Shown here piece after piece: positions 1,580 through 52,371 of a stretch of 53,529 bases of DNA. The DNA is from Nemertoderma westbladi. Its lineage: Eukaryota; Animalia; Xenacoelomorpha. Every line of letters starts with the position of its first letter. Within the stretch, counting starts at the first letter, position 1. The notes under the pieces are model-generated. The model saw nothing but the letters and a program-made list of their open reading frames with translations. It was not told the origin of the DNA and did not search any database. Position numbers and translations under genes: made by a program. Where the stretch lies: the NCBI GenBank assembly GCA_032718475.1, contig JAUCBJ010006994.1, positions 1 through 53,529 on the forward strand, given 5' to 3'.

Positions 1580-4330
1580 TAACTTTTTTCATATGAAAAA
1601 CGCTTTTATCATGAGGTGTTTTTTTCTATATCAAGTATTTGACCTTCTGACAGAAGCATCGTAGCCAGTAATTTTCGCTTTGCTTAGCTAGTACTATTTT
1701 AGCTTGTTAAAAAAATAAATTAAATTTGATATTTTTTTATAACTTTTTCTTGTGAAATTGCTATTATCACGAATAGAACAAATATTTTGCGTTCTTTCAG
1801 TGAGATGGTAGCTAGTAATTTTGATTTTTTGTTAGCAAGTACTTTTTATAAGATAATTGAATTGAATTGAACTTTCTTTAATGTCAAAAGGCCAGTGGCC
1901 TCCCAGCCGTAATATGACTTATTAGACAAACATAATCATTAACTATTTAAAATACAGAAACTTTTATACAATGAAACAACAATAATCAAACCCTATCACC
2001 AGTAATTTACATAACATAACACCACCGAATGTAAAATCGTTTTTTTTTTAATTTTTAATTGAAACTTATTTTTATACAATGAAAACTTAATGAGTTAGGA
2101 CGATTTGTTTAATTTTTGTGGCCGGGCCTTGAATAACTTATTTATATTTTTAGACAGCTGCATCTGGTTCCCAAGCATGTATTCCTTAATTAGAATAGAA
2201 TTATCCTCGAGATCCCATCGTTCCGAACTTGGAAATATCGACTTCCTTTCTGTTGCCAGGGCCGAACATTTGCCGAGAAAGTGTAACTCATCTTCAACTC
2301 CTTCCAAACACAATTGGCATATGCGCTCCTCTAGCGGTTTTCCTTGGAATCTACCAACCTCCACGTTAAGTGGTAAAACGCCACACCGAAATTTTGCCAT
2401 TGTAGACCTAGTGCTCCTTGCTAACGAATGTCGAACGTATTCCTCACAGCAAAAGTTTTCCTTAAATTTTATATAAAATTCTCAACTTTGGTTTAGATAC
2501 GCAGGAAAGTTTCCAGATATTGTCAAAATGAACCCTACATAATTTATTTAGTTTTCCAACTGCAAGGTGGTTTTTGTTAGAATACTTCCGCTACATCTAT
2601 TTTATCGAATATTCCGCACATTTATCTACACCAACCGGTGCTGTTAGCATATTCGAACTCGAAAATTTTCCTAGGTAGCCTAGTTACTGGAATATCTATT
2701 AGAAGATTTCACAAACGTAGAATATTTATATATCGCCGATGCTGAGAATAATCCCATCCCATTTTTAATAAAATAAAAATTATTTAGAACATCATCACAA
2801 CTGTGTGTTTGTGTGTTATAAGTTCTAGAGGCAAACTACTGCAGTTTCTACGAGGTCTAATTATTTAAAATAATGATTTTTTTTAAATAAGGGTTGTGTG
2901 ATGATTCCTGTACTATTTTTTTTTTAATGTTGTAAAACAAATCAATGTGTTCTAGAACAAAAATATTTATCAAGATTGATAGCTAAAACTTGTTCTATAA
3001 CATATATAAAAAAAATTGGAAAAAGCTTGTTGGTATAAAAAATAAAAATGTGATCTGGAACAAAAAAATGTGTTCTAGCTTGATAGCTAGCACATCTTCT
3101 ATAACATTTACACCATGTCCCATAATATAGTGTAATTTTCTGATGACACGGACCCCCCCCCCCCCCCCCCCCCCCCAGATTTTTCTACAAATCTTTATCA
3201 TATGGCTTGAAATTTGAGACATAACTAGTTCCACTCACCATCGATGACCCCGTGAAGCCGGATTGTCCGAATTTGCCTTTAAATTTTTTTTATAAGCGTT
3301 TTAAAAAAGTGTCTTTTGCGAAATCGCACCCTCCTTATCGTGGCCTTCTTCATCTTCATATTAATCGTAATTTTTTCATATCATGTAACATATGTAACAA
3401 TATCTGAATTTCATTGAGAAACAGCTGAGATATAGGCGTTCAAAGATTGCAAGAATTATCGTTTGCTACAAGCCATTTATTCTATTTAGTAGATACACGA
3501 TATTCTGGAACATTTTGTTTAAGAATGAATAGCTACGCTATAGATATATTGGATAGGAATACCGTTGTTGCCAACCAAATTATAAAATAAATAACACGTT
3601 CTAGAATTTTGTGTATTTATTAAATAGAATAAGTGGCCTGTAGTGAACGATAATTATTCTTTCAATCTTTGAAAGCCTATTTCTCAGCTGTTTCTCAATG
3701 AAATTCAGATATTGTTACATATGTTACATGATATATAAAAATTACGACTAATGTGAAGAATGTCCACGATACGGAGGGTGCGATTTTGCAAAAGACACTT
3801 TTTTAAAACGCTTATAAAAATAATTTGAAGGCAAAATCACAAATTCCGGCTTCATGGGGTCATCGACGGTGAGTGGAACTAGTGGTGTTTCAAATTTCAA
3901 GCAAAATGATAAAGATTTGTAGAAAAATCTGGGGGGGGGGGGTCCGTGTTATCAGAAAATGAGACTACAGTATATTACGGGACATGGTGTAAATGTTGAT
4001 TTCATATCAATTATATCAATATTATAATAATATAATAATATAATATCAATTATATCAATATATCAATTTTGATAAATATTATTTGTTCTAGAACACTTTA
4101 TATTTTCTATAACACATTTTATATTTTTTAAATTAGTTAGTTTTTTCTACTTTTTATAGAAATGTTATAGATCAAGTGCTATCAATTTTGATAAGTATGT
4201 TTGTTCTAGAACACAATTTTTCTACAACTTTTTTTGGAAAAAATACCATACCACTGTCAGAAGGTCAAATATTTGTTCTACAGTAGAAAAAAACCTAAGC
4301 ATAAAAGCATTTTTTATATGAAAAAATTGG
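1580..4330. mobile_element. Foldback / long inverted-repeat element
   Basis: Inner arms about 2925-3520 and 3590-4235 are reverse complements (poly-C at 3153-3176 vs poly-G at 3931-3942; ACATTTACACCATGTCCC vs GGGACATGGTGTAAATGT); outer arms about 1580-1633 and 4254-4328. Confidence 0.8.
2095..2760 (-). pseudogene. 3' fragment of a non-LTR retrotransposon ORF2 (CR1/L2-group-like C-terminus)
   Basis: AKFRCGVLPLNVEVGRF...EERICQLC..GVEDELHFLGKC matches the C-terminal Cys/His motif typical of these LINEs; upstream boundary approximate. Confidence 0.75.
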
Positions 4331-5524: not shown

Positions 5525-5650
5525 AAACACTATTTGCTAACTGCCTACTGCCTTACTGCCGACAGGTAGTCCGGTACCGCTATGCGATTACGGTCTACAA
5601 TGCTTATCTGAACTCAGTTTTATTAATTATCTAATAATTATTTTGTTGTA

Positions 5651-6560
5651 ATGGCGACTGGGAAACGAACTTTGAATGTTCCTACACCTCTCAATGTCAA
5701 TGCTATTGATAAAGAACGTGAGTTTAAACTGTGGAAACAAAAGGTAGAAATATATTTTATTGCTGCTGGCTTTACTGGTACTGATGTCTCCGCTGATATT
5801 AAAAAGGCAACACTGCTTAATTTGTTAGGGGATGCTGCACTTGAAGTATATAACAGTTTCAATCTACCTAATACAGATGCCACAACCTATACAGCCATCT
5901 TAGATAGGTTTCAGACCTTCTGTATACCACCCTCAAACCAATCGCTAGCCTTTCATAGATTTTTTTCACGCAGCCAAAAAAGCGGTGAGAGTATTGACGA
6001 TTTTTATTCTGCCTTAACTCTTGTGGCCAGAGTTGCAAATTTTCTGCTCTGTCAAAGGATGAATTGCTTAATGCTATTTATTGTTTCCGGGTTGTGTGTG
6101 GGGTCCATAGTGAAACTACCCAGAAAGCCATGCTCCAGGAGACACTGCTAACTCTGGATAAGGCTCTGGACATGTATATGAGTCTGCTACTTCTACACAG
6201 CAAGTTCTTGGTAATGGGGTAAAACCTACCAGTAGCAGCATAACATTGACTGATAATATTCTAATTGCCCGAGCTGGTGGTTCAAATACTCAGTATAATC
6301 GGCGGTCCTATAGCACTAAACCTATTCAGCCCGGCCTTGTTGTATCTGAACGACAATCTGCAGACCTATGTTTAATCAGGTCAACTGTAAATTTTGTGGG
6401 ACCTTACATGCTTGCTTATAGCAGAAAGCACTGCCTTGCATATGGAAAACGGTGTTAATTTTGTCATGAGGAAAATCACTTTGCAGTTTGCTGTCCTTGC
6501 TCTGGAAAAGGAAGTTTTTCTAAGAGAACAACTAGTGACAGGCGCTCTGGTAGGCCTACA
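5651..6560 (+). pseudogene. gag: gypsy gag (frameshifted)
   Basis: FKLWKQKVEIYFIAAG..LLNLLGDAALEVYN..SQKSGESIDDF; degenerate Cys/His boxes near 6385-6500. Confidence 0.85.
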
Positions 6561-6572
6561 GCTGCAAATCTA

Positions 6573-8513
6573 GTGGCTGGGTATGATGGACATTCAGATG
6601 ATTGCACTTCTGATTGTAATTATTTTGGTACTTATTGGGTTGGGTCTAGTTATGGCCTTGTGACCCAGGATGGGGAAAATTCTAATATTGATTCCCATTC
6701 CTCTGCCAAACACAATTCCTTTAAACATCTTACTCTGAAGCTTCCCCTAGAATCAGTTACCGGAATTGTTGACTTAGCAGCTGATCTTACTTTGATGAGT
6801 TTAAAGTATTTTAATGGATTGTTAGCTACTCGGATACACCTTAGCACTTCTGGTTCTCAACATAGGATTATGGCGGCTGATGGAAACCAACTCTCAGTTG
6901 CTGGGAAGTTTACTACTTCAGCTGTTGTTTCAGCTGATGATAAACCCTGCCCTATAACATTTCTTGTTGTCACAAACTTAGCTGTTGAGTGTCTTATTGG
7001 ACAGGATTTCCTTCGCACATTTTCTAAAGTGGAAATGCTTTATACCAATAATTTAACTCATCACTTTCCAATGCCTGAAGGTACACTTACATTGTCAGCT
7101 ATGAGTAGTGGAGACCAACCGAAGAAGTCACCACCCTTTGACCCAGTCTTAGCTTCCCAGTACCGTGAACGGTTACTCCATGATTATTCTGACCTTTTTG
7201 ATAAGCCTATCGGGTCAGCAGAACTTCGTGATTTTGCAATTAAACCTATTATAAAGACAGATCCATCTGCTAAGTTTCCTTATGTTCCAGTACGGAATGT
7301 TCCTATAAAGCACCATGACTTTGTCAAAGAGAAAATTGATGAGCTATCTTCTCAAGGCGTAATCCGTCACTCTCAGTCACCTTATCGACATAATCTTGTG
7401 ATTGCTCCCAAACCTGGTGGAGGTCTTCGTATGGCTGTAGACTATCGATCTATTGATTCTATTACCACATTTGATGCTTTCCCAGCCCCCCATCTGGATG
7501 AAGAACTTCGCAAACAGAATGGTAACCATGTTTACTGTAAGCTTGACTTTGCTCAATTCTACTACCAAATTCCTGGTGAGCTTTTGGAACCTACCAGGGT
7601 TATGTTTGGCTTAAAAAATGCTTGTGCCTGTGCCTCACATGTTAGTAAGGCTATTTTCAACAATTGTTCCCACATTAGTGCGTATAATGATGATGGCTTA
7701 GATGGTGCAAAAACTTTGGATGAGCTGGATGTAAGAGTCCGGTTGTTACTTGATCGAATCCATGAGCACAATCTCTCCCTCCGTGGCAGCAAATGCATGT
7801 TCTTTACTGATACTGGCTATGCTCTTGGCCATGTGTTTAAAGATGGACATATTGGTCCAGATCCTGATCGAATTCAGCCTGTAGTAGATTATAAAATACC
7901 AACTTCAAGAGATTACTTTTCACGGTTTCTTGGCTTTATGAATTGGTACAGAGAATATATTCCAGTCTTTGCTACACTATCGCAACCACTTTATGATCTG
8001 ATGAATAGTTCTGGCTCATTGTTCTGTTCTCTTTGGTCACCTGATCACATTATCATTGTCAATATATTAAAGGACATTCTATCTCGATCTATTTTGCTAT
8101 TACCTGACCCTACTGTGATATTAGATTTAGAAACTGATGCCTCTGAAGTAGCCATCGCTGGGGTATTATCACAGGATGGATGCCCTGTCTCTTTTATAAG
8201 CCGTTTGCTCAAACCGTGTGAGAAACGACTACCCATTGCTGAGCGAGAGGCCCTGGCAGTAGTATTCTGCATTGAAAAGCTAAAAGATTTTTTCTACAGC
8301 TCGCATTTTAATCTATATGTGGATTCAGCTGCACTTGCTGCTGTTTTAGAAAACCCTAAACCTTCAGCCAAGCTAATCCTCTGGAAATTGCTTCTTAATG
8401 ATTATTCATATGAAGTCAAACTACGGAAGGGTTGTGACAATGTCACTGCAGATGCATTAACCCGATGTTGGAACAAGATGTTAATTCATAGGAGAATCAG
8501 CAACAAATTATAG
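6573..8513 (+). pseudogene. pol: gypsy pol PR-RT-RNase H (degenerate, in-frame deletion in RT)
   Basis: CKLDFAQFYYQI, AYNDD, LETDAS, AEREALAVV, ADALTR; the KTAF segment is missing. Confidence 0.9.
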
Positions 8514-8519
8514 ATTGGA

Positions 8520-8988
8520 AGTATGCCTTGTTAAAGGATGTGTTCATAAGGGTCGTCATAAGGGTTGGAAACACTAGCTAAGCGGAAGGTGACCTGGAAA
8601 GGTTACCACCAGGATGTGCAAGAATTTTTAAAGGGTTGCCCCACTTGTGCACGTCTCAAACCTCAATGGGCTACTGCCAAACCAGGCCATACCCCAGTTG
8701 GCTCACAGCCTCAGGAGCTCGTAGCTATTGACTCTGTCGGTCCACTACCGCGCAATCAGGAGGGTTATGAGTACATGCTAGTTATGATAGATACACTTAC
8801 TCGATTCCCTAAGGTTTATCCACTAACTTCCATCACAGCCTCTCAAGCAATTTGTTGTTTGAGCGATCCTTCTCGTTATGGAAATATTTCGTCAATTTTA
8901 TCTGACCGAGACTCACAATTTGAGTCACAGGAGTTTAGACATTTCTGTGAGACACACTCTATTATCAAGAAACGAACCACAGCATATA
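8520..8988 (+). pseudogene. gypsy integrase, truncated
   Basis: HHCC remnant (CPTC), VAIDSVGPLP, ILSDRDSQF, RTTAYN; then fused directly to the 3' LTR remnant. Confidence 0.85.
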
Positions 8989-9033
8989 ATTGGAGATCAT
9001 TAAATGATATACCTGTATACCAGTACAGCATCA
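8989..9033 (+). repeat. Partial 3' LTR of the Mag-like element
   Basis: Matches about 5463-5509. Confidence 0.8.
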
Positions 9034-9190
9034 TAACTGAAATATGCACAATAGGACAGTCCTATCAACAATATACTGTAGGAGTTTATTTTGTGGAATT
9101 CGCAGTTTAAAATGAAACAAAATGTAAAACCAACGTGAGTTAATGAAATGTGAATCCCAAAAACTAAATAACTTCGATTTATTTAACTAG

Positions 9191-9632: not shown

Positions 9633-9804
9633 TGTAAGCGGATTCAATTCCATTACATTATCCATCTTCGAATGGGACCAGTGGCATTTTATCAATATAG
9701 TTGGGGATACGAGATTACCAATAATAATCTTGCCTCATAACCAACTTTTGGGGGGGGGGGGGGGGGGGCACAAGCCCTAAAGCCACAGAGAGAGGTGAGA
9801 GGTC
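9633..9804 (+). repeat. 5' fragment of an LTR related to family A, interrupted by element B
   Basis: TGTAAGCGGATTCAATTCC vs TGTGAGCGGATTCAATTCC at 983; shares the GATTACCAAT hairpin core. Confidence 0.65.
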
Positions 9805-10964
9805 TGTAAAAGCTTTTGCGTAATTAGCCGGTTATTATCCCCGTAAAGTACTCTGTGGTTGGTTTACCAGGCATAAAAAGGCCGTGTCCTTGCTGTACTG
9901 GTGTTTTAGAGGACATAAAAGCCATTTCTTCTGTATTTGTACTTTAGAGGACATAATCCGCAATTTCGTGACGCAAAAAGCTCGATACTCTTGAAAACAG
10001 TGTCGCTACCATGACGACGGCTAACAGCTGATATTGCCATGTCGACATTTCTTTGTTTCTTTGTTCTCTCGTTGTTCGGTCGACCAATCAGAGCGTTTTT
10101 TGTCTCTGTGTTGGAGGTGGATACAGAACTCAGTAGTTCAGTGTTATCTTTTTGCCCAGAGCCTAAGAACACCGGCTTTTGGCACCTCCGTGTTTCAGTC
10201 TTTAGTCTTACATTAGTAGGCTTAATTATAGAACGTATATCTGTTATCAATGCAATTCATATCTCAATGCTTACTAAACATATCATGCATATCTTACTTA
10301 ACATTACTGCTTTTGCTGTCGGTTATTCATTATATTTGTTGATGGAAGATTATATTTGGAATACTGATCAATAGTCAGACACCCAACCTTCTTGATATAC
10401 TAAAGGTTAGAGAGACCGGTTACAGATAAACGATTGCGACTTATGTTAAGTGGTGTGAAGTGAATCTAATGCTATTTTATAGGCCCTACATGTATTGTCT
10501 GTTATTCTCTTTGTATGTGACTAAAATTAGTGAAGGTCGGCAGATTGGTGTGCAGCATTGTGCAGCATTGTGTATGATTGTGACTGATAACAAAGCATCT
10601 CCTAAAGAATGCGCCATATACGTGAATCTATAGCCATCTCATTGCGTCTAGTTTAAGTCATAACTCTGTTTACATATTTAGAGCGCCACGTCCTAAAAGA
10701 ACTGTTAATATTTCCCGAAAGTGAATAATATTTGTCAGAGAATATATATTACGATCAGTCGAATAATATGGTAGGCTTACACCATCAATCATTAAGCTCC
10801 GAACTCAGTCTCCCGGGTATATCCAACGGGTGAATGATTGCGCATAGACTGGCTTCGGCTAATGTAGTGTATCAAATACTCGTCATAGGCTAAAGACTAT
10901 ATATCATCTAAAAGACATCCTAATTTGGCAGGTTAAACTGTCAAAGGTCTTAAAAGCGCAAACA
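9805..10964 (+). repeat. 5' LTR of element B
   Basis: TGTAAAAGCTTTTGCG...AAAAGCGCAAACA; homologous to 20195-21423. Confidence 0.85.
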
Positions 10965-11259
10965 ATAACAGATATTGCTTCTGGATTGCGGTGTAAGCAA
11001 TCAAGTCTAAAGTACCGGTACCGGTTGAACGGTAACCTAACCTGTACTGCTGTAGGCCTGTAGGCCCAACTGCCCGAACCGGTACTTACGGTACAGGTAC
11101 ATCAGTATTATTCGATTTTGATAATTATATACCGGTAGGCCTTAATAATTAATCGGGGACGGCCGCCCTGGTTTTTTATTGAGATTTTACTTGTTTCTGT
11201 CAAGTTTTATTTATTTGTAGGCCAGTATTGAACAGAAGGCGTGTAAGCCTGCTCAGATT

Positions 11260-11830
11260 GTACAGATAATTTGTAGGCTTGACTGTTGGCTAACTGTTGA
11301 TTAGGTCTGAACGGATTGCAGTGTGTGTAGATCATCTGTCCGATAAAGAATGGTTAAGAAGTAGGGGCAGCCATCGCTGTAAGGTAAACCCCCATCTAAA
11401 GAATAAGTCGTACTACTGGGTTAGAACGCATACTACTTAACCATTTCGGAGTCTGCATGTCCTGTGGTTTAATTAGGCCTGATAGGAGTCCGCCAGCGTT
11501 TGGTCTGTACTTTGTTTGTGTAGTCTGTACGGGTAGCGTATAATTTTATTTAGATAATTTGTAGGCTGGATAGTTGTCTTGCTGTTGTTGGGTTTGAGGA
11601 AATTTCGGTGTGTGTAGAGTGTATGTCCGATAAAGAACGGTTAGGAAGTAGGGGCAGCCATCGCTGTAAGGTAAACCCCCATCTAAAGAATAAGTCGTAC
11701 TACTGGGTTAGAACGCATACTACCTAACCATTTCGGAGTCTGCATATACCGTAGTTTGTTTAGGCTTGATAATAGTCTGTCGGTGTTTGGTCTGCATTTT
11801 GTTTGAGTAGTTTGTACGCGTAGCGTAATA
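11260..11830 (+). repeat. Two tandem 287-nt units in the element B leader, each predicted to fold as a long hairpin
   Basis: Cores at 11339-11450 and 11626-11737 are nearly identical; flanks pair with many G-U pairs. Confidence 0.85.
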
Positions 11831-13221
11831 TTTATTATTCAGAGTTTATGCGATTATTCGCAACATTCATTCCCCAAGTTTGTTCCTACAGTAATTGTGT
11901 TTGTTATCCATACTGTTATAGTTAAACTAACCCCGGTACTACACGGGCTGCTTGGCGTAGGTAAAGACTGGTGATTTTGTGCACCGGTCACTCCAGCAGA
12001 TGCCGTGGTTCTTTTAGCTGTTCAAGTATATTTAACTACTGATTATCTGTTGTACAAGTACTCGTACCTAATTTAGGGTTTAGTGTATAGTGCTTTCCGA
12101 AAGTAATTAGTGTAGGCATTATATTTGTGTTGTAAAGTGGTTGATAGGCACGTTCGATTAGCTCTATTAACTTCTAGGTAGGAACACTCCGTGATACATA
12201 ACGTAGTACCTATAGCGATACGGCTATAGGTCGTCAGGCGGTGGTATTTTCCTATCTGGACAACGCAGTGTATTTACTACTACTTATTATTTTCAAATAC
12301 CGTAGTACCCTGTCCGTTGTAATAACCAGATTCTAACCCTTTGTCAGGCTGGTTTGTAGACTTCTTGTAAAATTACCCTAAAAATTCGTATTTTGTGTTT
12401 TTTGTAAATTTTTGTGTTTATTTAGAGATTGTAATCTCAACCCGAATCGTAAGTAATTTGTAGATAAGTAACTTAGAAAGTAGAATTATTTGTTTTAGCG
12501 TCCTATAAGTAGCACTTCACTGAAAGCGCACCGCTTTGTGTAGTGATTACTCCCCAGAAATAATAACATTTATTTCAAATACTGACAAAACCCATTTTAA
12601 ACGGGTATATATATATTATAAATCAACTCAAACGATTTATAAATAGTAGGCCTGCCATACAACAACTAGGTCTCAATATCAGTTGGACTACTACTTAAAT
12701 AACGGTAATAAAGTAAGTTAAAGTAACCAAGTAACCCTAAAATATTCAGAAATTCAATTATTCTAAAATAATTGATATACCGGTATTTACGATAAGCCTA
12801 TTATCTTTATTTCTATAAATTTAGGCTGAAATTATACCGGTACTTTGTAATTAATTCTAGTCCAGAATTATACTTATATATACTATAAACTGTAGGCTGT
12901 ATACCGGTATTCACGATAGGCCTATTATATATTTATATATATTTGTGCTAAAATTATATACCGGTACTCTGAGACAAACCTAGTCTGTACTGTAATAATA
13001 CTTATATATATACTATAAGCATACCGGTATTCTAATATATTATATATATATCACGCTACACTGAGTGAGTAGCAGTATCGGTAATTAATTACTAGGCTAA
13101 CAGTGATACTGAATTACTAGACTTGCTTTAACTGTAATATAGCAGTAGGCATTCAACTGTACAATCAAACATATCTGACACAAAACGGGCACTGTCAGAT
13201 AGTTTTTTGAAAAGTGTTAGA

Positions 13222-16200
13222 ATGAGTCTTCGACTTGGACAGTGTCTTGAAAGGATAGAAGAAAGAAAAGTAGCAGCGGCAGAAGCAGAAAGAAAAGCGG
13301 CAGAGGCAGTGGCAGAAGCAGACTTGAGGAGACAAATCGGAAGACAGGGATTTGCCTCCTCCGATGAAGGTGATATAAGAGATCCCGAAGGTAGAGGTAA
13401 TAAATCTCGTTCAAGCGGACGTAGACGGATGCTCAAGCGGAGGGTACCTCCTGAGGTGAGAATGCATCTGGATAGTGCAGACTATCTAGCGTATTACAGA
13501 ACTCGCTGTGGTACAGAACCCACAGACCAAATTATTACAGTAGAAAGACTCCCTACTATAACAGATGAGCCTGAAATAATTAGTCCTGTTCTCGAAGACA
13601 CCCCTTCGGTGCTAGAGACACCTGTGCTCCCAGAAACCACCTCTAGATTCCCTTTGCACAGCACGAAACTACCTGTGCCCAGTAGGACTGTTCCCGAGTC
13701 CGAACCCATCCTGGACGCCGAGCGAGATATTAATAATTTATCGCCCGTCGTCTCTCGCTCGCCCGCTACAACGTTGGCGACTCCCGCTTCGGCGGTTGAG
13801 TGGGTAGCTGAGGGACGACGGGAGATGGGTCTCCTGCTCGAGCAGCTGAGGGAACACTGTTTGTGCTCCTCTCAGCAGGTCCGGGAAATGGAAGAGACTG
13901 TCCAGCAGCTCAAGGGAACAGTAAGGGAAAGTAGGTTAGAGTTGCAAAAGGTGCAGCAAAGTATCGCGTTAGAACGCGATAAATTAGTGAACACACAAAA
14001 GGGTATACCACCACCCCCTGTAACAATGTGTCAACCCGTTAGGTCTGAAGTATCCCATGCGCAAGGTGTGGAGCCTACACGCATCTATACTGCTAGCGAA
14101 GTAGAAACTCCTATAGTAAACCCTATTAAGGGTAATTATAAACCTGTTGATAATGATATCTCATCTAGACTTGATAATAATCCGAGAAACTTATATACCG
14201 ATAATTCTCTATTCAATAATACGATGGCTCAAGAAAGTTTTACACGCCAAATGGCTAGAACCGAAGCCCGACAAGCGGTAAAGGTTGGAGAGATCGTCAA
14301 GTTCAATGGAGATGAGATGAAATGGTTACCTTTTAATGAATATTACAAAGATAACATACAGAACTCTGTACTATCTAACGGAGAGAAACTTAGATTCCTC
14401 ATCGAATGTTTGGAAGGACCTCCCAAGTCAATGGCGTTAAAATTTATTGGACATCCAGATGGATTAAGACAAGTTTGGGATACACTAAACATCAGGTATG
14501 GTAATAGGACTAACATAGCTAGGTATTTATATGCGAAATTAATGGCGCCCCGAAAGTTTCTTAGCAGCAGGATTATAGAGTTTTCCGATGAGATTCAGGA
14601 GATCTGTAGACAACTAGATTGGTTAGGTAAGTCTCATGAATACCAGAATTCTATGGTTGTAGGAGCCTTAGCATCTACTTTGCCCAAGGGTGGAGTAGGT
14701 ACACGCTGGGACAAGAAGGTGTTATATATGATGGAACAACAACAACGAGACCCTACCATGGCTGATCTCATGTCATTCTTGGATAGCGAGGTGAAATTAC
14801 AGCTCATAAAGCAGTCCAGAGAGAAGACAGCAGAAAGTAAGGTAAGTGAGAAACCCGTTTCTAGAAGAAGGGTAACACCAGTATGTTATACCGACGACAG
14901 TGAAAGCCAAACTTCTCAAGGAGAGGACAGCGGGAAAGACACTGACAGATCTTATTATGTCAATAAAATGCCTAAAGATCAGGTAAGTAAATCCAAGTCT
15001 CGACCCAATGACAGAAGGGAACCGGTACAAAAAACCCCTCCTACGTCTCCTAAAAGAATTCAGGTGAGAAAGCCCGAGGAAAGAACAAGTGTGCACCACA
15101 TAGCACAGGTTAAAGTAAGTAACATCAAGCCGAAATGTGTGCTGTGCGACGGGCCCCACCGTTTGAATGTGTGTGATGAATTCCTGAGGAAATCACTCGA
15201 GGATAGACGTGAAGTCATGTGGGATAAGCGGTTGTGTTATAATTGCCTCAGACGAGGACACCAACGGCGAACCTGTTACTCCGACGCAAGGTGTGCAAAG
15301 TGCGGCGCAAAACATCATATCTTGTTGCACACTGAATTCGAACGAAACAGCTCGAGTCAGGTAAGTGAGTCCGAACTACATGTCCAATTCAGTGATGTGA
15401 ACGACACTGACCAAAGTTCTGAGATGGAAGGATTCTATACGGACGAATTCTCCGACCAAAGTTCTGAAATGGAAGGATTCTATACGGACGAATTCTCCGA
15501 CCAAAACGAATCCTGTTACCTAATAAACACCACCGCAGTGTATCGAGCACTCATGCATGAGAAAGACACAGACAGCGACCTTACCTTAACTATTTCTGAT
15601 CAACAACCATCTTGGAAAGCGCCAACTTCCAATATAGGAATCCGAGAATTTCCTGTAGTCCAGTTACGGGTCCACGGACCTCAGAAGAGCTATATAGTGA
15701 ACACCCTCCTGGACTCCGGTAGCACAGGAACATTCATCGATAAAGAACTAGCCGAAGTCATCTTTGCTGGACAACCCAAGTTCCGAACCAAGCTAAACAT
15801 GTCAGGGATCATGAAGGTTTGGAATTCTACTGTAGCTGCCGACTATTATATAGGTGAGTTGTCCACTCCACAGGATAAACTAGGAGAATACAGTATAAGG
15901 TCAGTAAAAATGGTGGCAATAAAGAACTTCGCTACCACCCAAGTGGAACCTTATAATTGGGACGAAGATGATCATGTCCAACAACTTAACATCCCTAGAT
16001 TCGACACCGATTATCCTGGAGTACAAATATTAATCGGTCAAAACGCGCATGAGGCGCTGGAGACATTAGAGAAACGACCTACTCAACCGCAACCACTTCA
16101 GACCTATGCGGTAAGAACTAGAGTAGGTTGGTACCTTACTGGACCTTCCCGTAGAACGCTCAGGGAAAGACTGCTTCAAGATCGCGTCTGCCAGGTGAGT

Positions 16201-16923
16201 GAATGGGAAGACGATACTAGTGAGGGAGACGACCCAACTGAGGGAACACCACACTCCTCAGATAATGACAATCTTAACTCCAATGTAGATCAATGGAGAT
16301 ATTGCCCCAAGACGATGAATATAGCCGACATCGCTTCCAGAGGAGCAACTCCTCAAGAACTGACAGATACTCCAGACCGGCTAGGTGAACCCGACTTCCT
16401 GAGTAAGGAGGATGAATGGCCTTCCCATCTTACTCCGGCTGAGATTAGACAAGCCAAGGGAGCGGAGAAAGTCAAACCTAAAACCCGGACGGGTGGATCG
16501 GAGTTATTTGAACCCGGGATAGATCTGTCGGTATTACATATTGCCAGGGACGACGCCGTGGATCTGGACCTCCCCACCGCGAGTGGATCCTTCATGAAGA
16601 TCAGAGGGAGCGATTGGAGCTCTGGAACATCAAACGTCTCGCAGGGACTCTTACCTCTCCTGCAGGGAGCGACGGACCACTATAGCTCCTGGAATCGGCT
16701 TTGTAACGCAGTCATATACTTTGAGCGATGTTTCTATCGTCACTATTCCAGGACGAAGAGGAAACCTGGAATTGTATTCGGGATGCAGCGACTCAATCAC
16801 CCAGTCGGTCGTTTGTGTTTACTGGAAGGGAATGGAGGACTCTCCGGAAACTGTGGAAGGCAAGATTCTCTTCCCACGACCACCTCCCTAATCCTTCAAA
16901 CATCTAGGGACTCCATAACGTAA
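13222..16923 (+). CDS. gag: BEL/Pao gag-protease fused to the post-RNase H segment (uninterrupted ORF, about 1233 aa from the first ATG)
   Basis: DUF1759-like KFNGDEMKW..EKLRFLIECLEG; triple Cys/His CVLCDGPH..CYNCLRRGH..CAKCGAKHHILLH; LLDSGS protease; WRYCPKTMNIADIASRG; YSSWNRL. Confidence 0.92.
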   Translation: MSLRLGQCLERIEERKVAAAEAERKAAEAVAEADLRRQIGRQGFASSDEGDIRDPEGRGNKSRSSGRRRMLKRRVPPEVRMHLDSADYLAYYRTRCGTEPTDQIITVERLPTITDEPEIISPVLEDTPSVLETPVLPETTSRFPLHSTKLPVPSRTVPESEPILDAERDINNLSPVVSRSPATTLATPASAVEWVAEGRREMGLLLEQLREHCLCSSQQVREMEETVQQLKGTVRESRLELQKVQQSIALERDKLVNTQKGIPPPPVTMCQPVRSEVSHAQGVEPTRIYTASEVETPIVNPIKGNYKPVDNDISSRLDNNPRNLYTDNSLFNNTMAQESFTRQMARTEARQAVKVGEIVKFNGDEMKWLPFNEYYKDNIQNSVLSNGEKLRFLIECLEGPPKSMALKFIGHPDGLRQVWDTLNIRYGNRTNIARYLYAKLMAPRKFLSSRIIEFSDEIQEICRQLDWLGKSHEYQNSMVVGALASTLPKGGVGTRWDKKVLYMMEQQQRDPTMADLMSFLDSEVKLQLIKQSREKTAESKVSEKPVSRRRVTPVCYTDDSESQTSQGEDSGKDTDRSYYVNKMPKDQVSKSKSRPNDRREPVQKTPPTSPKRIQVRKPEERTSVHHIAQVKVSNIKPKCVLCDGPHRLNVCDEFLRKSLEDRREVMWDKRLCYNCLRRGHQRRTCYSDARCAKCGAKHHILLHTEFERNSSSQVSESELHVQFSDVNDTDQSSEMEGFYTDEFSDQSSEMEGFYTDEFSDQNESCYLINTTAVYRALMHEKDTDSDLTLTISDQQPSWKAPTSNIGIREFPVVQLRVHGPQKSYIVNTLLDSGSTGTFIDKELAEVIFAGQPKFRTKLNMSGIMKVWNSTVAADYYIGELSTPQDKLGEYSIRSVKMVAIKNFATTQVEPYNWDEDDHVQQLNIPRFDTDYPGVQILIGQNAHEALETLEKRPTQPQPLQTYAVRTRVGWYLTGPSRRTLRERLLQDRVCQVSEWEDDTSEGDDPTEGTPHSSDNDNLNSNVDQWRYCPKTMNIADIASRGATPQELTDTPDRLGEPDFLSKEDEWPSHLTPAEIRQAKGAEKVKPKTRTGGSELFEPGIDLSVLHIARDDAVDLDLPTASGSFMKIRGSDWSSGTSNVSQGLLPLLQGATDHYSSWNRLCNAVIYFERCFYRHYSRTKRKPGIVFGMQRLNHPVGRLCLLEGNGGLSGNCGRQDSLPTTTSLILQTSRDSIT

Positions 16924-18586: not shown

Positions 18587-20120
18587 ATGATTGAGTTGAT
18601 AGAAGATGATCTTGGTATCAGGGAACGATATACTCTACCTTTACAAGCGTTTGTTGATAGCTTGATACGCGGCGACGCTGGTCCGACTACTACGGAGGAC
18701 GATGGTCGTTATATCTAACCACCAATGTCCCGGGAGCAACTTGCGCGTGGGTTAGACTGTAGAAAATTCATCGCTCGCTATACGCATCGTAATGGTACGT
18801 ATATGGACTTCTTAACTACTGGTCATCCTATCGACCTACATGATACGAACGATATAGACACCAAAGGGAAATGGTTTATTTAAATATCATACCCAGCGGA
18901 AGCGGAACGATAAACTGAGACTCGAACACGAAAATTCTATTCGAAACCGACTCGAAAGTGCAGATGTCGAAGTGCCGGATAAACGCAGCGACTCCACCAA
19001 ATACCTGGAATTCTTGAGAGAAACCTACCTCGATATTACCAGTCAACAGAATCTAGAAGCTCGATATCCTCAAGGTATACATCATGACCGCATGGTAGAA
19101 CTCAAACGGCTCTATTCCACTATGATGTATCTTACCGCCGATCGATCGCTACCTGTTGTACCGGATAGCTTCGAACGGATGGAGGAATATTCTAAGCTGG
19201 AGAAAGATCACTCGCGTTTCCCCTACAATACGTGCGTTTCTGGTATTATTGCGATGAATGCCCAAGACCCAACCAACAAACGGAAAGACATAAACATCCG
19301 CGGAGACGTTGCTTTAAACACGGTTTTACTCGCTATACTTGCGGGAGTTTCGAGCGAAACTTGTTCGATGTATCACCTACGCTCGTTCGACTCAGACGAT
19401 CCTTAAATAAACCAATGATCAGAGTTTCGGAATACTCGATCAGAACTCCTCATTCTCCAGTGAGACTTCAGAATCTTGATTTGATCCTATTAGTATGACG
19501 GATCCTCCCGAGCTGTACTCACTGCTCAAAGATCTAGTGTTACTTGAACAATTAGTCGGTGGCACCCCAGTGTGGGCTTCCTAGATACTAGCCCATTCTA
19601 CCTAGCCGGATTGGGACGCGGACATTTAATATCGCCGTTTAACCCTTACCATCGTCCCGTCCCGGCTTAACACGATATAACCTGTCACCAAAGTGGCGGA
19701 GAACGTTATACCAAACGAGTTAAACGCTATTCTACAAAGATCAGAAAGGAAACCTGCGTTTGTTCAGATAAACGTAAGTTGTAACAGCAAGTCCAAGCAA
19801 TAAACGAATTGTCTTTATCTCAGTTCGATTGTAAAATCCAGAATCTCTAAGAAGATATCGAACTTAGGCAACCCCATTCTCTGCAAGAGTTTTTGGATGA
19901 ACGTATCCAGCTACGAGCGGAGGAAAATCAGCTCGAGGAGAAGCATATCGAAACGGCGGATACCCCGACCATAATCCTACACCTTCTGATGCAATCATAT
20001 TGCACCCTTCACCCAGGATTTATAGCCCTCCTAGTAAAGTGGCTCGCCCCAAAGAGAAAAGGACTCTTGATAGCCTCAAAAAACTGCGTAAACGCCGTCT
20101 GCGTAAGAAAGACTAACTGT
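18587..20120 (+). pseudogene. Decayed accessory ORF of element B, homologous to the N-terminus of the element C accessory gene
   Basis: RLYSTMMYLTADRSLPVVPDSFERMEEY (in ORF 18972-19406) and in-frame NPYH at 19641-19652 match the 30501-31589 protein; boundaries approximate. Confidence 0.7.
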
Positions 20121-20194
20121 TTAGAGTATCTTTATATTTTAGAAACTGTGATTTGTTATATTTTATAGACTTAAATCCCATTTTCTGGGAGCGG

Positions 20195-21423
20195 TGTAAA
20201 AGCTTTTGCGTAATTGACCGGTTATTTTCCCCGTAAAGTACTCTGTAGTTGGTTTAGCAGGCATAAAAGGCCGTGTCATTGCTGTATTGGTGTTTTAGGG
20301 GACATAAAAGCTATTTCTTCTGTATGTGTACTTTAGCGGACATAATTAGCAATTCTATGACGCAACGCACTAGATCCTCTTGAAACAGTGTAGTTACTTT
20401 GACGACAGCTAACAGCTGAGCTGTACACGTGGAGCCTTTGCACGGAGCCTTACCTTGGTTCTTTGTTCTGCTCAGCTCAAATGACGACATCTATCAGCTG
20501 TGTCCACGTGGAGCTTTTGGCCAGGAGCTCTGGTTCTTTGTTCGGCCCAGCCAGTTCGACCAATCAGAGATTTCCTCTTTGTGTGAGAGCTGTACAGCAA
20601 AATCACATGACTCAGTACTAACGTTTCCTGAGCCCAGAAAGACCGGCTTTGGAATTTCGGTGTTTTTCAGTCTTTAGCCCAACATTAGTAGGCTTAATTA
20701 TAGAACGTATATCTGTTATCATATTATAACACATATCAATCGTAACTATTCATTGTACTGCTATTTACTGTCGGTTATTCATTATATCAGTTGATGGAAT
20801 ATTATTATATTGGAATAACGATAAATAATTACGAAACCCTCAATCTTCTTGATATACTGAAGGTAAGAGAGACCGGTTACATATAACGATTGCGACTTAC
20901 ATTAGAGTGGTTTTGAAGTGAATCTAATGTTATTTAATAGGCCCTACATGAGTCGGTCTTTGTTCTCTTTATATGTGACTAAAATTGGTGAAGGTCGGCG
21001 GATTGGTGTGCAGCATTGTGCAGTATTGTGTATGATTGTGACCGATAACAAAGCATTTCCTAAAGAATGCGCCATATACGTGAATCTATAGCCATTCCGT
21101 TGTGTCTAGTTTAAGTCATAACTCTGTTTATATAGATAGAGCGCCACGTCCTAAAGGAACTGTTAATATTTCCCGAAGGTGAATAATATTTGTCAGAGAT
21201 TATATAGTACAATCAGTCGAATAATACAGTAGGCCTACCTCGCAATACGATTAGGCTTCCGAATCCAGTCTCCCGGGTATATCCAGCGGGTGAATGGTCG
21301 CGCATAGACTGGCTTCGGCTAATGTAGTGAATCAAATACTTGTCATAGGCTAAAGACGATTTATTATCTAGAAGACATCCTAATTTGGCAGGTTAAACTG
21401 CTAAAGGTCTAAAAGCGCGAACA
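20195..21423 (+). repeat. 3' LTR of element B
   Basis: Preceded by GGGAGCGG; TGTAAAAGC...AAAAGCGCGAACA. Confidence 0.85.
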
Positions 21424-21432: not shown

Positions 21433-21772
21433 CTGCATAAAAACTAAGCCTATATTTTATAGAAAAATAAATGACTTTCCGTCGCCGCAAAGGGGTAGGA
21501 CTAGGGCAAAAAATAATTAATTTTATCAAAAATATGTTTGAGTTTCGGTGTCTTGGACCAATACGCGCTAATCCTCAACACCATCGTCAGCTGGACAGGG
21601 AATTAGCCAAGTCTATCTATACTGCACCAATGACCTAAAAAGTCGCACCATAAACTCTGTTACCGACCACCTATTCCAAACAGACATCTCACCACAGAAC
21701 ATTGGAACCCATGCGGTAAGGCGACGGAAAGTCATATATTTTCCTATATAATATAGGCTTAGTTTTATGCAG
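21433..21772. mobile_element. MITE with TIRs of about 55 bp and TA flanks (Tc1/mariner-type)
   Basis: CTGCATAAAAACTAAGCCTATATT...GACTTTCCGTCGCC and its reverse complement at about 21720-21772; TA on both sides. Confidence 0.85.
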
Positions 21773-34809: not shown

Positions 34810-35376
34810 TGTGACGGGATCCGAGAGGATCCCGGTTTATCCGGTATTGGTTAAGTACGCGTCCCCACCGTGTGGATGAAAAGAGTTGTTGTTCTGACGT
34901 TGTCGTTAAGGATATAATATTGAGATAACATATAGTGTATAGGTACAATAGCAGATAGCACTGAATACTGCTGCACTGGTACCGGTAATGTGATGACGGC
35001 GGTGACGGTCCTAACTGTCACCGTACTACCTGACTGTACTGACCGACTGAGATAACTGACTGAATAGGGGAGCACCAACAGGTAATATACTGCACGGTTG
35101 GCCACATTAGTGTACTTAGTCGATGCTGTCCCCCCATTGGCTAATATCCCACTTCTCGCCCCTTCACCTTCCCTGGTGTGTTTCCCGTTCGCCCCAGCTA
35201 TTCTCTCTCTTGTCAGGGGAGTAACCCCTGACCCTTATTGTGTGTGTCTCCTTTGGGGCCTATTGTCCCCGTTTACTGGGCTGACACGAGGTTGATTGGT
35301 AATCAACCTCGTGCTCCCAATATTGCTTTATGGCTCACTCTATGGGTTTGTGTTAGCGGAATTGGATAAGCTAACA
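34810..35376 (-). repeat. 3' LTR of element A
   Basis: TG..CA ends, adjacent PPT, near-identical to 41186-41752. Confidence 0.95.
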
Positions 35377-35759
35377 CTCCCCCCATGCTATCTTCCCGGT
35401 GAGAAGATAGCATCCAACTAAAGTGCGCTACAATTCCGCTGGATCCCGATCTAGCATCGGGTGTGGGGTGGGTATATTTTTTCGGAGTCGGCTTTCCAGG
35501 CCGCTCCCTATGTGTATGATGTCACTACCCTCTGGCGTCTCGTGTCGGGCCGATCGTGCGCTTCTCTCACACAATTTTTGTTTCCCCAACACTCTCACCA
35601 CTCTACTCCAACTCTCGCATACTCCCGGACCTCCTCGTCCCACACTCTTCCTCTCACTTCTCCTCCCCCACACTTGAATTGCGCCCACGCACTCTTCGCA
35701 CTCCGCTCTATTACCTCTCCACTCTCTTGTCACTCCCTAAGGCTTTAATCTCTAATGCT

Positions 35760-37270
35760 ACCCCTGTGCTATCATACTATCTACCTACTGCTTACTAACT
35801 CTAACTATCTAACTAACTCTGCTAACTACTAACTCTTACTACTTCTAGCTCTAACTGAGAGCCTCTAACTTTCTACTGACTCTAACTCTCTACTAAGTCT
35901 AACTAACTCCTACTAACTTTCTAGTTCTACTAACTCTACTTGACTCCTCTGAGTCTACCAACTCTGCTAACTAGCTCTACTAACTCTACTCCACTAGCTC
36001 TGCTAACTCTACTCCACTAGCTCTGCTAACTCTACTAACTAGCTCTACTAACTCTACTCCACTCTTCTAACTACGTGGCGCTTGCGGTGCCCACAACCCC
36101 TTTACTACTACTTCCTTCTACGTGGCGTTGCGGTGCCCACAACCACTCTACTATCTGGCACCCTTTGTGCCCTTCTACTACTCAACTACCTCTCTAACAC
36201 TCTAACCCTACTACTTGGCACCCTATGTGCCCGTCTCTACTACTCTACTCTATCTCTAACTCTCTAACTCTACTACCTGGCACCCTATGTGCCCGTCTCT
36301 ACTATTCTACTCTCTGGCACCCTATGTGCCCTCTCTGCTACCTCTAACACTCTAACTTTACTACCTGGCACCCTACGTGCCCTCTCTACTCTTCTACTAC
36401 CTGGCACTCAATGTGCCCGTCTCTACTCCTCTACTCCCCCTTTACGTCTCATCGCCTACACGTGACGCTCTGAGTGCCGGCAGAGTGGGTACGTTAATTA
36501 TGTGAACTACTACTGACTCTACTAACTCTACTAACTCTCTTCTAACTCTACTAACTCTTTTTGTGCCCGGCACCTCTTGTGCCCGGCACCTTCTAACTCT
36601 ACTAACTCAACTAACTCTACTACTAACTCAACTAACTCTACTACTAACTCTTTTTGTGCCCGGCACCTCTTGTGCCCGGCACCCACCCTAATTAACATAC
36701 CCTGCTCTTACATCAAACACGCCATCACGCCCGTGCCCCACTAAGTTCAGCGCATTCCCTACTAACTCTAACTACGTGGCGCTTACGGTGCCCACAACCC
36801 TCTACTGCTACTACTAACACCCCTAACTAGCGGTACTACGTACCCTCTTACTACTCTAGCTCTCTCTACTAACTAGCGGTACAACGTACCCTCTTACTCT
36901 TACTAACTCTCTAACGGTACTACGTACCCCTTAACTCCTACTCTCTAACGGTACTGCGTACCCTCTAACTCTTACTCTAACTCCACTAACTAACGGTACT
37001 ACGTACCCTCTAACTCTTACTCTCTAATCGGTACTTACGTACCCTCTAACTCCTACTCTCTAACGGTACTGCGTACCCTCTAACTCTTACTCTCTAATCG
37101 GTACTTACGTACCCTCTAACTCCTACTCTCTAACGGTACTGCGTACCCTCTAACTCTTACTCTCTAATCGGTACTTACGTACCCTCTAACTCTAACTAAC
37201 TAGCGGTACTTACGTACCCTCCAACTCTCTAACTAACTTCCTAACTAACTCTTACTACCTAACTTCTACC
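35760..37270 (-). repeat. Strand-biased (AGAGTTAGT)n-like tract with embedded hairpin arrays (element A 3' UTR)
   Basis: Repeated GGCAC-N5-GTGCC and GGTAC-N3/4-GTACC units separated by CTAACT/CTACT linkers. Confidence 0.85.
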
Positions 37271-37303
37271 TACTCTATTATTTAATTATTTTCTTATTTT
37301 TAA

Positions 37304-40300
37304 TTAAATAATTATTTTATATTTTGTGCGTGGGAAGGGCGTCTCGCCCTCATTCCCACCCCCCTCAGTCCAAAACTTTGGACGACTAAAAACTCTCACG
37401 TGCCCCTTCTTCCAGTAGGCACTCTCCTGCTGCCCTCCTATACGTCCTCTAACTCTTCGCCACACTCTCTTCGGTGCCACCTTTGCTGGCCTCCCCCTTC
37501 GTATGTGCGTTGGCATTAGAGCCCTCGACGACCCCCGCTCGTCCCTCAGTATACGCGGTGTCTGCCCATGTAATGCCCCCCCGCACTGTGTCAGCCCTGC
37601 GTGTGTATGCAATACGCCTCCTTCTACTTTCCCGACTCCTTTGCTCATGGACTTCTCTACCCCTGGTTTAGTCCTTTCACATCCTCTCCCTTTCCAACAC
37701 TCTCCGGATCTGTGTCCTTTTACCACACATCGATGACATAGTCCGTTTGCGTCTGTGTAGGCTACACGATCTCGTTTGGGCAACGCTTGCCAGTACTTGC
37801 AACTCCTGGTCTTATGGGTTCCGTCCCGATGTAATTGACATTGGAATCCTGGATTATAGCGTTTCCTGTATAGTCCTTCACGTATCGCGCTTAGGTTTAT
37901 ATGTACCGATTTTATGTTTCGATTGTCTAGACTCGGCCTACTGGGTATATTGGGATTGTGTTTATTTTTGGTGTTATTTTCTTTCTGTCCCTGCCACGGT
38001 GTGGCCCTGCTACCAGCTAACTGTGGACTAGCAGTCCCCTCTATGGCCGCGTGTGGTATCGACTGTCCGCAAGACATTCTCTCGTCCAAGGGGTCCGATG
38101 TTCTTGCTCCTATTGGGGTATATTGTTGATATTGTGATGGGGGAATGTCACCCTGTCCCCCCCCAGCCGGTATGTTTGGTACTGGGGTTGATGTTAGTGT
38201 ATTGGGGCCCATACATCTATCTCCAATAACTCTCCCCTCCCCTGGATGTATGTTATGTCCCTGTGTATTATAGTCATGCTGCTGTACCGATATAGGCCTA
38301 CCTACCTCTCGCCTACCTACCGGTATGTACTCCGCGACTTCCGGGTTTAATCCCGTCGTTCGCGCTACCCCATCGCCTACTCTATCTCTCCCAGCATGGC
38401 CTATAATAGTATGTGCAGTAAGGCCTACAGTATGTCCTGCAGTCTGCATGTGCCCTTCCGAACCGAAGTTTATTCTTCGCGAATCTCGAATCTCCCCGCG
38501 ACTACTGCACTCTCGATCGGCAGCTATATCCCGTCGGGAAGCTTCTCTTCGATCCCCTATCCTGCTCTCGTCTTCGTATTGGTACCTCCTGTACCCCTCT
38601 CTTGGCGTGCGGTGCGTTTCTCCGGGGCGACGGCAATCTCCCGAAGTTCGACCCCACTGGCTCCCTGACTCCATCTCTACTGTGGACGGTCCGTTATCCG
38701 TCCTCGCACTGCTATCGTTCGTGGCGACACTTCTTCTCCTATCTTCTCTTCTTCTCTTTTCTGTGTAGTATTCCGGCTCGTGAGGTCTCTCGTCGACCTC
38801 CCGGTTAAACTCCACTGTTCTTCTTCCCTCTTCTGGTCGGGCTCGACGCTTCGTCTGCCCTCTCGCGACGTCAACCTGCTTCTCTCTGCTCGATCGCACG
38901 CCGCTGGGGATACTCGCAATCCCCCTATTACTCTCCGTCGCCGGTTGTTGCGGTTTACCTATTTTGGCCCGCGCATTATCCGCTGACGGCTGTGGGACAC
39001 TCTCTGCCCCCCCTCTCTCTCTACCAATTTCTCGCGGTGGGGTGTCCGTAGCCCCCCCCCCCCCCCCCCACCCGCCACCTCTAACTTCACTATCTCTTAC
39101 TACACTTCTGTGTCCCTCTTGTCGGACATTCTCTACCCCCCCTCTCTCGCCACTAATCTTATGTGGTGGGGCGCCCGTAGCCCCCCCCCCACTCGCCACT
39201 TCTAACTTCACTACCTCTTGCTACACTTCTACACCCCTCCTGTGGGGCACTCTCTGCCCCCCCTATCTCGCCACTAATCTTATGTGGTGGGGCGCCCGTA
39301 GCCCCCCCCCCCCCACTCGCCACATCTAACTTCACTATCCTTTACTTCGTCTCTACACCCCTCTCTAGTCGACGCACTGTCTCTACTAGGGCTGGGTCTA
39401 TTCACCCCCGCCTCTCTCTCTACTACTGCGTGGCCCACCAGGCCCACCTTGGGTTGGCTCAACCCCGCTACCCCCTGCCTACCAACTACGTGGCCTACCA
39501 GGCCGCCGTCGGGTTGGCTCAACCCTGCCACCTCCTGCCTACTAACTGCGTGGCCTACCAGGCCCCCGTCTGCCGGGTTATGCACGTCCGACACGCTCAC
39601 ATTAGTAGCACCATTCCCAATATTATTTGTTAAATCAATTAAATTATTAGAATTTGAAACGGGATTATTATTTAAATTATTTAAATTAGGATTGTTATTA
39701 TTTTCAAAATTTAAATTATTATTCGTATTATTTGAATTATTCTGAATATTTGAATTAATGTTATTATTTGAATTTAAATTTAAATTACTACTACCAGGTA
39801 AAATATTATTTGCTGCAATAAAGGGATTAGGGTTATCTACTACGGTACTATTAATATTAACTACTTCTGGCGTACTACTATTACCCCCCCCCGCCCGTAT
39901 GGCTACACCACCATTGGGTCTCACTCTCTGACAGTCCCAATCGCGCCAGTTCTAGTCGGCACTTCAGTTTGGCTTGATATTGCATAAGCCCCCTTAGGCG
40001 GGCATGCAAATCATCCCGCTCACGCTTTGCCTCTATCTCTCTCTCTCTCTCCTCTCGTACACTCTGCGCGGCCAACTCTACCCCTCTCACAACCATCTCA
40101 GACCGCCTCGCCGGTTCATCCTCTACTCTCATCTCCTGCTCCATACGCTCCTCGACTCCCTCCCTATACTCCCTCGCCAACTCTCCTAACCTCTCTGAAA
40201 ATGCAACATTACCCCTCAGTTGTCTCTCTAACTGTCTCTGCTCCCACGCCGCCTCTTCTATTTTAAACTTCAGATTTATCTTCCACATCCTTCTTTCTTT

Positions 40301-41122
40301 TGCGGAGGATGTAGCAGAATTATCGGTTGCGACGGACTCCCGCCGCTCCTCCGTCCTACTAGCTTTCCCCCGCCTCCCGGAATTTCCTCCGACCGACGAG
40401 ACCGAATCCTCGGAGTTAACCTCGGATTCGCCCTCCTCAGGTCTCTTCCAACCCACTAATTTTACACCCTGGGCATCGACTAAGTATGGCCCTATGTACA
40501 CTACACTAGGCTGCATACCCCTACACTCCCATAGTTCAACCAGTTCGTTGACAACTCCCCTCGCCCTCTCCTCGGCTAGTTCTCCCTGCCCAGAACACAC
40601 TAGGTAATCAAAGTATCTGTTCGACTCACCTAGTCGTCTCCTCAGTCTCACCTCGTCTATCTCAGCCCCTCCTCTAGCTTCCTTCAGTTGCTCCCGGGTC
40701 GCGGCGTAGGCCCGTCGAAGTCGATCAGAAACCCCGACGTCCTCGTCGCCGACCTCTCCTCTGTCTCTCCGGGTCCGACGTCGTACCGGCGGCCCCACCG
40801 TCGCCGTTCCGGTGGGCCGTCCGTCGCCCTCGGTCTGTGGCTGACCGGTGACATCGGTATGTCGACCCTCGCTCCGCGTCGACTCGTCTTTCTCTTCTCC
40901 TCCCGACTCGTCTCCTCTACTTGACTCGCTCTCTCCTGGTAGACGACCCCCCACATCTTGGTTCGCCGTGTTGCTCGTTATCGACGTCGCGTCAACCTGC
41001 GTCGACGTGGTCGGCGTAGCATCGACCGGCGTCGTGGGTTCGTATCGTCTCGCCGTGGCCTCGCGGATCGTTAGATCGTCGTCCGGGGTCCGCGGCGGTG
41101 TCGTTTCTCCTCCTCTGTTCAT
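37304..41122 (-). CDS. gag-like ORF of element A, split at G homopolymers (probably one ORF of about 1270 aa)
   Basis: ORFs 39881-41122, 39280-39924 and 37304-39211 break at C/G runs; BEL-type CQLH..H..C...CHRCVVKGHRSGEC; coiled-coil N-terminus; Asn-rich segment. Confidence 0.7.
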
Positions 41123-41185
41123 CTTGTCTTCGGTGGCTGGTAGCCACAGTCTGTCAGTGCAGTTCGGCAGGCCTAGAGTTAGGAC

Positions 41186-52225: not shown

Positions 52226-52371
52226 TCAGAGGAAAGTGAAAATGATGAAACAGAGAGTGAGATAGAGAAAGAAGAAAATGAGAGTGGTGATGAAGAAAAT
52301 GAGAGCGAGAAAGAAGTCGAGGAACATGAAAGTGGGGAGGAGAATGACTCAGATAATTAGGAGATATTAAG

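Follow-up and report, generated by a model that had tools for sequence, protein, structure and literature searches.

The stretch of DNA analysed here, referred to as the window, comprises 53,529 nucleotides of contig JAUCBJ010006994.1 from the xenacoelomorph Nemertoderma westbladi (assembly GCA_032718475.1) and contains, among other transposable elements, an LTR element that we term element B (Table 1). Its two LTR copies are alignable from TGTAAAAGC to ...AACA and differ beyond, and because both match up to ...AACA and then diverge, the edge of the 5' LTR is set at 10964. The LTR features used to recognise BEL/Pao elements, namely a length of 0.2-1.2 kb, TG...CA ends and a polypurine tract, are all found in element B; neither AATAAA nor ATTAAA occurs in either LTR. 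Identity between the LTRs is 84% across 1130 ungapped columns and the flanks (AGGTC and TATAC) lack a target-site duplication, so element B appears to be old, or else a recombinant of two subfamily copies.

The coding content of element B is that of a BEL element which has lost its polymerase. DUF1759 is matched in the long open frame (Pfam, E 2e-13), and a profile of 35 BEL polyproteins matches at 13930-16179 (E 4e-82), where element B covers just profile columns 50-639 and 1186-1251. Missing in element B are this profile's RT/RNase H and integrase columns, which the neighbouring element C does match, and the integrase tail that persists is weak (E 0.4-0.6), the Pol remnants being in the order expected for BEL/Pao. 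Since RT, the RNase H core and the integrase core are deleted, element B is non-autonomous. By its Gag and protease it is a BEL/Pao-derived defective element, and we do not class it as a full member of the group. Its Gag-protease has no close relative in the protein libraries searched (three matches in one search, and 24-40% identity among the best 150 matches in another); the named protein matches carry PF05380 and PF03564, and the named members of ten related protein clusters come from a nemertean, sea urchins, an abalone, a pseudoscorpion and a wasp. An exact 25-nt motif from the element B LTR had zero matches in metagenome contigs, and no BEL relatives were found in viral contigs. The 2.2-kb leader of element B holds two tandem copies of about 290 bp (11264-11843, + strand; 85% identical), both with a splice-donor-like AAG/GTAAAC, and the strongest acceptor of the region is at 11221.

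Several other elements surround element B. A broken Ty3/gypsy-type element (5627-9110, + strand; RVT_1, RT_RNaseH and rve), for which no LTRs were found, lies just upstream, and a MITE-like insertion with 56-bp terminal inverted repeats and a TA duplication (21433-21772) begins 9 nt past the 3' LTR. Element C (27111-48400, - strand) is a broken BEL/Pao element in which gag, RT, RNase H and integrase are present, as is a long extra 3' ORF that has no Pfam match; its LTRs and primer site could not be defined in the window. The purine tract of element C ends in GGAGCGG, like that of element B, and the 3' ORFs of the two elements match at 39% over 46 aa. Directly upstream of the element C leader is a second, interrupted copy of the extra 3' ORF (48743-52984, - strand; 87-91% identical).

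Table 1. Features of elements B and E in the window, with candidate and predicted functions marked as such.
Feature	Position	Strand	Remarks
Element B 5' LTR	9805-10964	+	1160 bp, TG...CA; begins TGTAAAAG, ends CAAACA
Initiator-like TCAGT	10195-10199	+	predicted +1 at A10197; same spacing to primer in both B LTRs
40-nt block identical between B LTRs	10210-10249	+	longest identical run; ends 2 nt past primer site
Candidate self-primer of element B, ATATCTGTTAT	10237-10247	+	predicted +41 to +51
Possible intron in element B LTR	10406-10931	+	downstream of primer; acceptor 10932; speculative
Candidate non-tRNA primer-binding site of element B, ATAACAGATAT	10965-10975	+	flush with element B 5' LTR end
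Element B open frame	13138-16923	+	1261 codons; BEL gag (DUF1759, three Cys-His knuckles), protease, post-RNase H stretch, weak integrase C-terminal remnant
Broken extra 3' ORF of element B	18858-20168	+	no Pfam match; weakly homologous to element C 3' ORF
Polypurine-tract end, GGGAGCGG	20187-20194	+	purine run flush with element B 3' LTR
Element B 3' LTR	20195-21423	+	1229 bp; candidate primer site at 20709-20719
Element E 3' LTR	34810-35376	-	4 differences from 5' LTR; TSD TTTGT on both sides of element
Element E leader stretch extending duplex	41147-41162	-	14/16 pairs with 41425-41410
Candidate non-tRNA primer-binding site of element E, GTCCTAACT	41177-41185	-	flush with LTR end
Candidate self-primer of element E, AGTTAGGAC	41384-41392	-	3' end at predicted +54
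Element E 5' LTR	41186-41752	-	567 bp; TATA-like 41465; TCAGT A at 41437

The original prediction placed an 11-mer without TGG directly after an LTR ending at 10964, and the comparison of the LTRs bears this out: ATAACAGATAT follows the edge immediately, and no TGG lies within 9 nt of the LTR end in element B or in element E, the first TGG for element B being at 10982. The 11-mer occurs once in the 53,529-nt window, and its exact reverse complement is found at 10237 and 20709 and nowhere else, one copy per LTR. The predicted duplex would stop precisely at the LTR edge, as had been claimed, because C10248 cannot pair with A10964. Complements of at least 11 nt at offset 0 arose in 27 of 20,000 dinucleotide-shuffled element B LTRs, in 23 of 5,000 when offsets of 0-5 were allowed, and at 1 of 9,184 internal control positions of the element. 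The 11-mer is A/T-rich, with a core duplex of -10.5 kcal/mol, pairing beyond 11 nt is not significant (1,647/5,000 in one test and 232/3,000 in another), and the pairing in element B rests on one primer-binding site. That the complement is present and exact in both LTRs stands; its conservation between the diverged copies, to which the original prediction also pointed, is not significant taken alone. The site lies in the longest identical run of the two LTRs, after which 21 of the next 61 columns are identical, but when the LTR mismatches were placed at random 5,000 times, 680 placements contained a run that long, so conservation of the primer site is weak evidence by itself.

The initiator-like TCAGT expected some 40 nt upstream of the site is found at an equal spacing in both LTRs. 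We treat this motif as a putative initiator, and the TATA-like motif of element E as a putative TATA box; no TATA box was found upstream of the TCAGT of element B. A primer built across a splice junction was also considered for element B and rejected, as no GT-AG junction in the 5' LTR reaches 9 nt or more and none of the targets does better than the contiguous site. The donor of the possible LTR intron is weak in the 5' LTR, and its 3' copy, at 20863, is the strongest LTR donor.

To look for the same arrangement elsewhere in the window, all 6,249 CA dinucleotides were checked for an upstream complement of at least 11 nt. The 26 matches belong mostly to one inverted-repeat element and to local hairpins, and the LTR end of element E is among them. 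The source of most matches, at 2926-4231, is an element with long imperfect terminal inverted repeats. Element E (34810-41752, - strand) is a young non-autonomous LTR element nested in the RNase H region of element C, and its BEL affinity is indicated by one zinc-knuckle match only (64 columns, E 1e-8). The base after its primer site is C both in its 3' LTR and in its relative, element F, so the duplex is taken as 9 bp ending at the LTR edge. The 9-mer alone was equalled in 25 of 20,000 shuffled LTRs, and in 10-17 of 1,000 when offsets and junctions were allowed. Among 3,000 shuffles, 9 equalled an extended duplex between the predicted first 54 nt and the leader (-45 kcal/mol), as did 2 of 293 other windows. 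The TATA-like motif lies 28 nt before a TCAGT that is itself 45 nt upstream of the primer. Counted from the A of TCAGT, the primer 3' end falls at +51 in both element B LTRs, +54 in element E and +55 in element F, positions that are motif-based and have other TCAGT copies nearby.

Only two LTR elements of the window, B and E, have a 5' LTR end that could be defined, and a self-complement is present in both (2/2), in unrelated sequences; the arrangement recurs in different letters. They are two unrelated candidate cases of the contiguous type from a single host, share their predicted internal spacing and belong to a lineage that appears distant from the main self-pairing clade. Element F (57-1574, + strand) consists of a 3' end and 3' LTR (983-1574) that are about 75% identical to element E, and its primer site (AGTTAAGAC) differs from that of element E by one base. 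The element E primer site lies in a hairpin loop, and another hairpin immediately precedes the LTR end.

To assess how widely such pairing occurs among BEL elements, we scanned metagenome contigs with 14 aligned BEL polyproteins and took the best 80 of 570 confirmed stretches, which form 61 families by DNA similarity. In thirteen loci we looked for a second copy that would fix the LTR end, and three (L018, L059 and L068) were dropped, their shared stretch not ending at the LTR terminus. Among the boundary-fixed families, 8 of 10 pair with their own LTR over 10-15 nt at offsets of 2-3, a fraction that is no estimate for BEL/Pao overall because the query was biased to one branch. The pairing is contiguous in L013 and L043 and exists only across a GT-AG junction in the LTR in L007, L019, L025, L026, L051 and L054. 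Each of the eight was equalled by none of 154 control windows and by at most 1 in 1,000 shuffles. The paired words differ between families, each tracking its own LTR, splice junctions included. L049 has a TGG-type site and a self-complement of only 4 nt, and lies outside the self-pairing clade. L066 was missed by the preset filter, and under a relaxed filter its family mate L068 shows 10 nt of pairing over a junction (2/60 shuffles). In nine further loci, chosen post hoc after the sequences had been viewed, pairing over 10-13 nt was present in 9/9; L048, likewise post hoc, pairs over 15 nt. A blind scan without known LTR ends gave at least 11 nt in 26 of 48 loci; it is not counted as evidence because the seven matches inspected included false positives (a local hairpin in L045 and an ORF-like stretch in L003) and four more matches (L043, L051, L066 and L068) lay off the known LTR end.

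A tree of RT, RNase H and integrase was built from the 31 of 68 rows that were kept; in it, the 12 self-pairing loci fall on one side of a branch with SH-aLRT 100, apart from L049. Element C forms a long, unplaced branch in this tree, and grouping it with the self-pairing loci was not rejected (AU p = 0.48). A Gag-protease tree (32 of 73 rows kept) joins element B to element C outside the self-pairing group (support 92, with a long-branch warning). On these trees the element B lineage appears as a long branch that is not placed inside the self-pairing clade, a placement that is not rejected for element C. L002 and L043 are sister families (SH-aLRT 100), the former with a splice-junction site and the latter with a contiguous site in a 177-bp LTR, which suggests that an intron may have been lost or gained while the pairing was kept.

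Self-priming is known from other LTR superfamilies. In Tf1, one account describes how the RNA's initial 11 bases pair with the primer-binding site and are cut by RNase H between bases 11 and 12 (PMC7175516); another describes a three-duplex structure in which the primer is the RNA 5' end (PMC10085805). Self-priming is also described for Tj1 (PMC4600332), and a plant survey predicts it for the Tcn1 and copia TAR lineages, the criterion for TAR (Houba, Osr-1) being complementarity of at least 10 nt starting 0-5 nt after the 5' LTR (PMC6317226). Element B resembles Tf1/Tf2, Tj1, Tosmo and the Tf1/sushi and Tcn1 chromoviruses in having no tRNA site and an 11-nt stretch of its own 5' LTR that pairs right after the LTR (PMC7175516, PMC4600332, PMC10085805). 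The own-LTR complement characteristic of Tf1/sushi spans 11 nt in element B and 9 nt plus an extension in element E. However, element B is BEL-type by Gag and protease and not a Ty3/gypsy chromovirus with a chromodomain integrase; the primer predicted for it is internal (+41 to +51, motif-based), whereas that of Tf1 is described as the first 11 nt; the three-duplex 'pretzel' of Tf1 was not found in it; and in many of its BEL relatives, unlike in Tf1, the site comes together only over a splice junction. The side duplexes expected of a Tf1-type pretzel are not significant in element B, the best side matches being reached by 105-1,975 of 2,000 shuffles, and element E has one 8-bp side match (46/2,000) with 1,742/2,000 for the other side. 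Element B is Tf1-like in its candidate self-priming arrangement and is not a Tf1/sushi member.

Element B and 8 of the 10 BEL families show the complementarity by which TAR elements are recognised (PMC6317226), or its spliced form, although they belong to a different superfamily and other hosts. Because the trait has already been predicted in two superfamilies, BEL/Pao would be the third. According to the ICTV, the replication of Belpaoviridae is tRNA-primed and poorly understood, and their 18-nt primer-binding site matches tRNA-Arg or tRNA-Gly by complementarity (PMC8742986). Element B is like these viruses in LTR size, DUF1759 Gag, protease, order of the remnant domains, polypurine tract and extra 3' ORF, whereas the 18-nt tRNA site is absent from elements B and E, and element B also has no RT or integrase. 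The original prediction knew of no report of tRNA-independent priming in BEL/Pao, which agrees with the literature we searched: no report of self-priming in BEL/Pao was found, in a search mostly at abstract level and with Repbase Reports and most subscription papers outside its scope. In the text of the main BEL/Pao survey (PMC3118150), the terms PBS, primer, tRNA and self do not occur, and the portions consulted of PMC3601003, PMC3286476 and PMC5443660 hold nothing further on BEL priming.

We consider it probable that minus-strand synthesis in the element B family is primed by fold-back of its own RNA, through an internal primer that is cut out and extended by a helper RT, and not by a tRNA. 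It seems unlikely to us that the primer is derived from the element but supplied by a different molecule or by its other end (the 3' R copy, a dimer partner RNA, a spliced subgenomic RNA or an LTR small RNA). The site does occur in both LTRs, likely within R, and the element B partners, separated by 728 nt, are not predicted to pair in cis: in the unspliced naked transcript the duplex has a pair probability of 0.00 in 9/9 folds and enforcing it costs 10 kcal/mol, while leaving out the speculative LTR intron brings the inner nine pairs to a probability of 0.94-1.0. The folds of the unspliced transcript also weigh against the fold-back reading that we favour. A spliced RNA used as template would, however, lose the intron, and the extended duplex of element E runs colinear with what is predicted as the first 54 nt, in keeping with a 5' fold-back. 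Predictions of long-range folding are moreover unreliable, and Gag is described in PMC2656454 as chaperoning annealing. The duplex of element E has a probability of 0.02-0.12 in folding, at a cost of 1.9 kcal/mol when enforced, and two of the three contiguous-type metagenomic loci fold (L013 and L043; L037 does not).

We regard as rather improbable a second alternative, in which the pairing is real and has its role in packaging, in circularisation, in strand transfer or in a translation switch, while a host RNA such as a tRNA half or an unusual tRNA primes at or near the site. Half-tRNA primers without TGG are indeed described for several copia lineages (PMC6317226). The paired words nevertheless change from family to family with the LTR of each, across splice junctions too, which is unlike a fixed host RNA. 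The TGG at 10982 lies 17 nt from the LTR edge, and a tRNA using it would need an ending unlike that of cytosolic tRNAs. No Rfam match near threshold was found in 9700-13200, the three Rfam matches being all far below threshold; in the window as a whole ARAGORN found no tRNA. It is highly improbable, in our estimate, that the element B match taken alone arose by chance or through a single copying mishap in an element that has decayed and been rearranged. The element is old or recombinant (84% LTR identity, no TSD), its 11-mer is A/T-rich, the site was picked from many features and the blind scan of 48 loci gave false positives; against this, the position was set beforehand by the LTR edge (p about 0.001-0.005), the anatomy and spacing recur in element E, and pairing is found in 8 of 10 other families.

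Priming by the element's own RNA could proceed as follows. Transcription would start near A10197, and nucleotides +41 to +51 would anneal to 10965-10975, probably helped by the Gag zinc knuckles, a help proposed because no such fold is predicted for the naked RNA. A cut after 10247, possibly the work of RNase H from an RT provided in trans, by analogy with Tf1, would free a 3'-OH, from which RT would extend from 10964 back to the cut before transfer to the 3' R copy; a poly(A) site is therefore expected downstream of 20719. Everything up to the primer 3' end would be re-copied from the 3' LTR, the primer region always so because the template would end at the cut, and this re-copying would explain how an intron is kept in both LTRs of the junction-type relatives. 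Such retention would be hard to explain if the pairing had no priming role. The self-priming first proposed for element B is supported as the best reading, in modified form: element E and 8 of 10 metagenomic BEL families support it, but element B is unable to copy itself and its primer is predicted to be internal, some 40 nt into the transcript, not starting at the first base as in Tf1.

On balance we lean slightly towards a broader reading, in which self-priming is the normal start of a large marine BEL/Pao branch and reaches a second deep lineage (elements B and C), with a primer cut about 50 nt from the cap that in many families would be built by the spliceosome, the intron surviving as a junction inside the primer that is never copied. 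BEL/Pao is one of the main animal LTR superfamilies, and if this reading is right tRNA-independent priming would extend to a third superfamily, with a geometry unlike that of Tf1 in its internal or splice-built primer. It would also free BEL elements from dependence on tRNA supply and from silencing by tRNA fragments, and may explain under-calling by annotation tools that require a tRNA site.

The primer site starts 2-3 nt past the LTR end in L007, L019, L025, L026, L051 and L054, and is flush with it in elements B and E and in L066. In these last three both the primer site and the purine tract are flush, which would give blunt cDNA ends.
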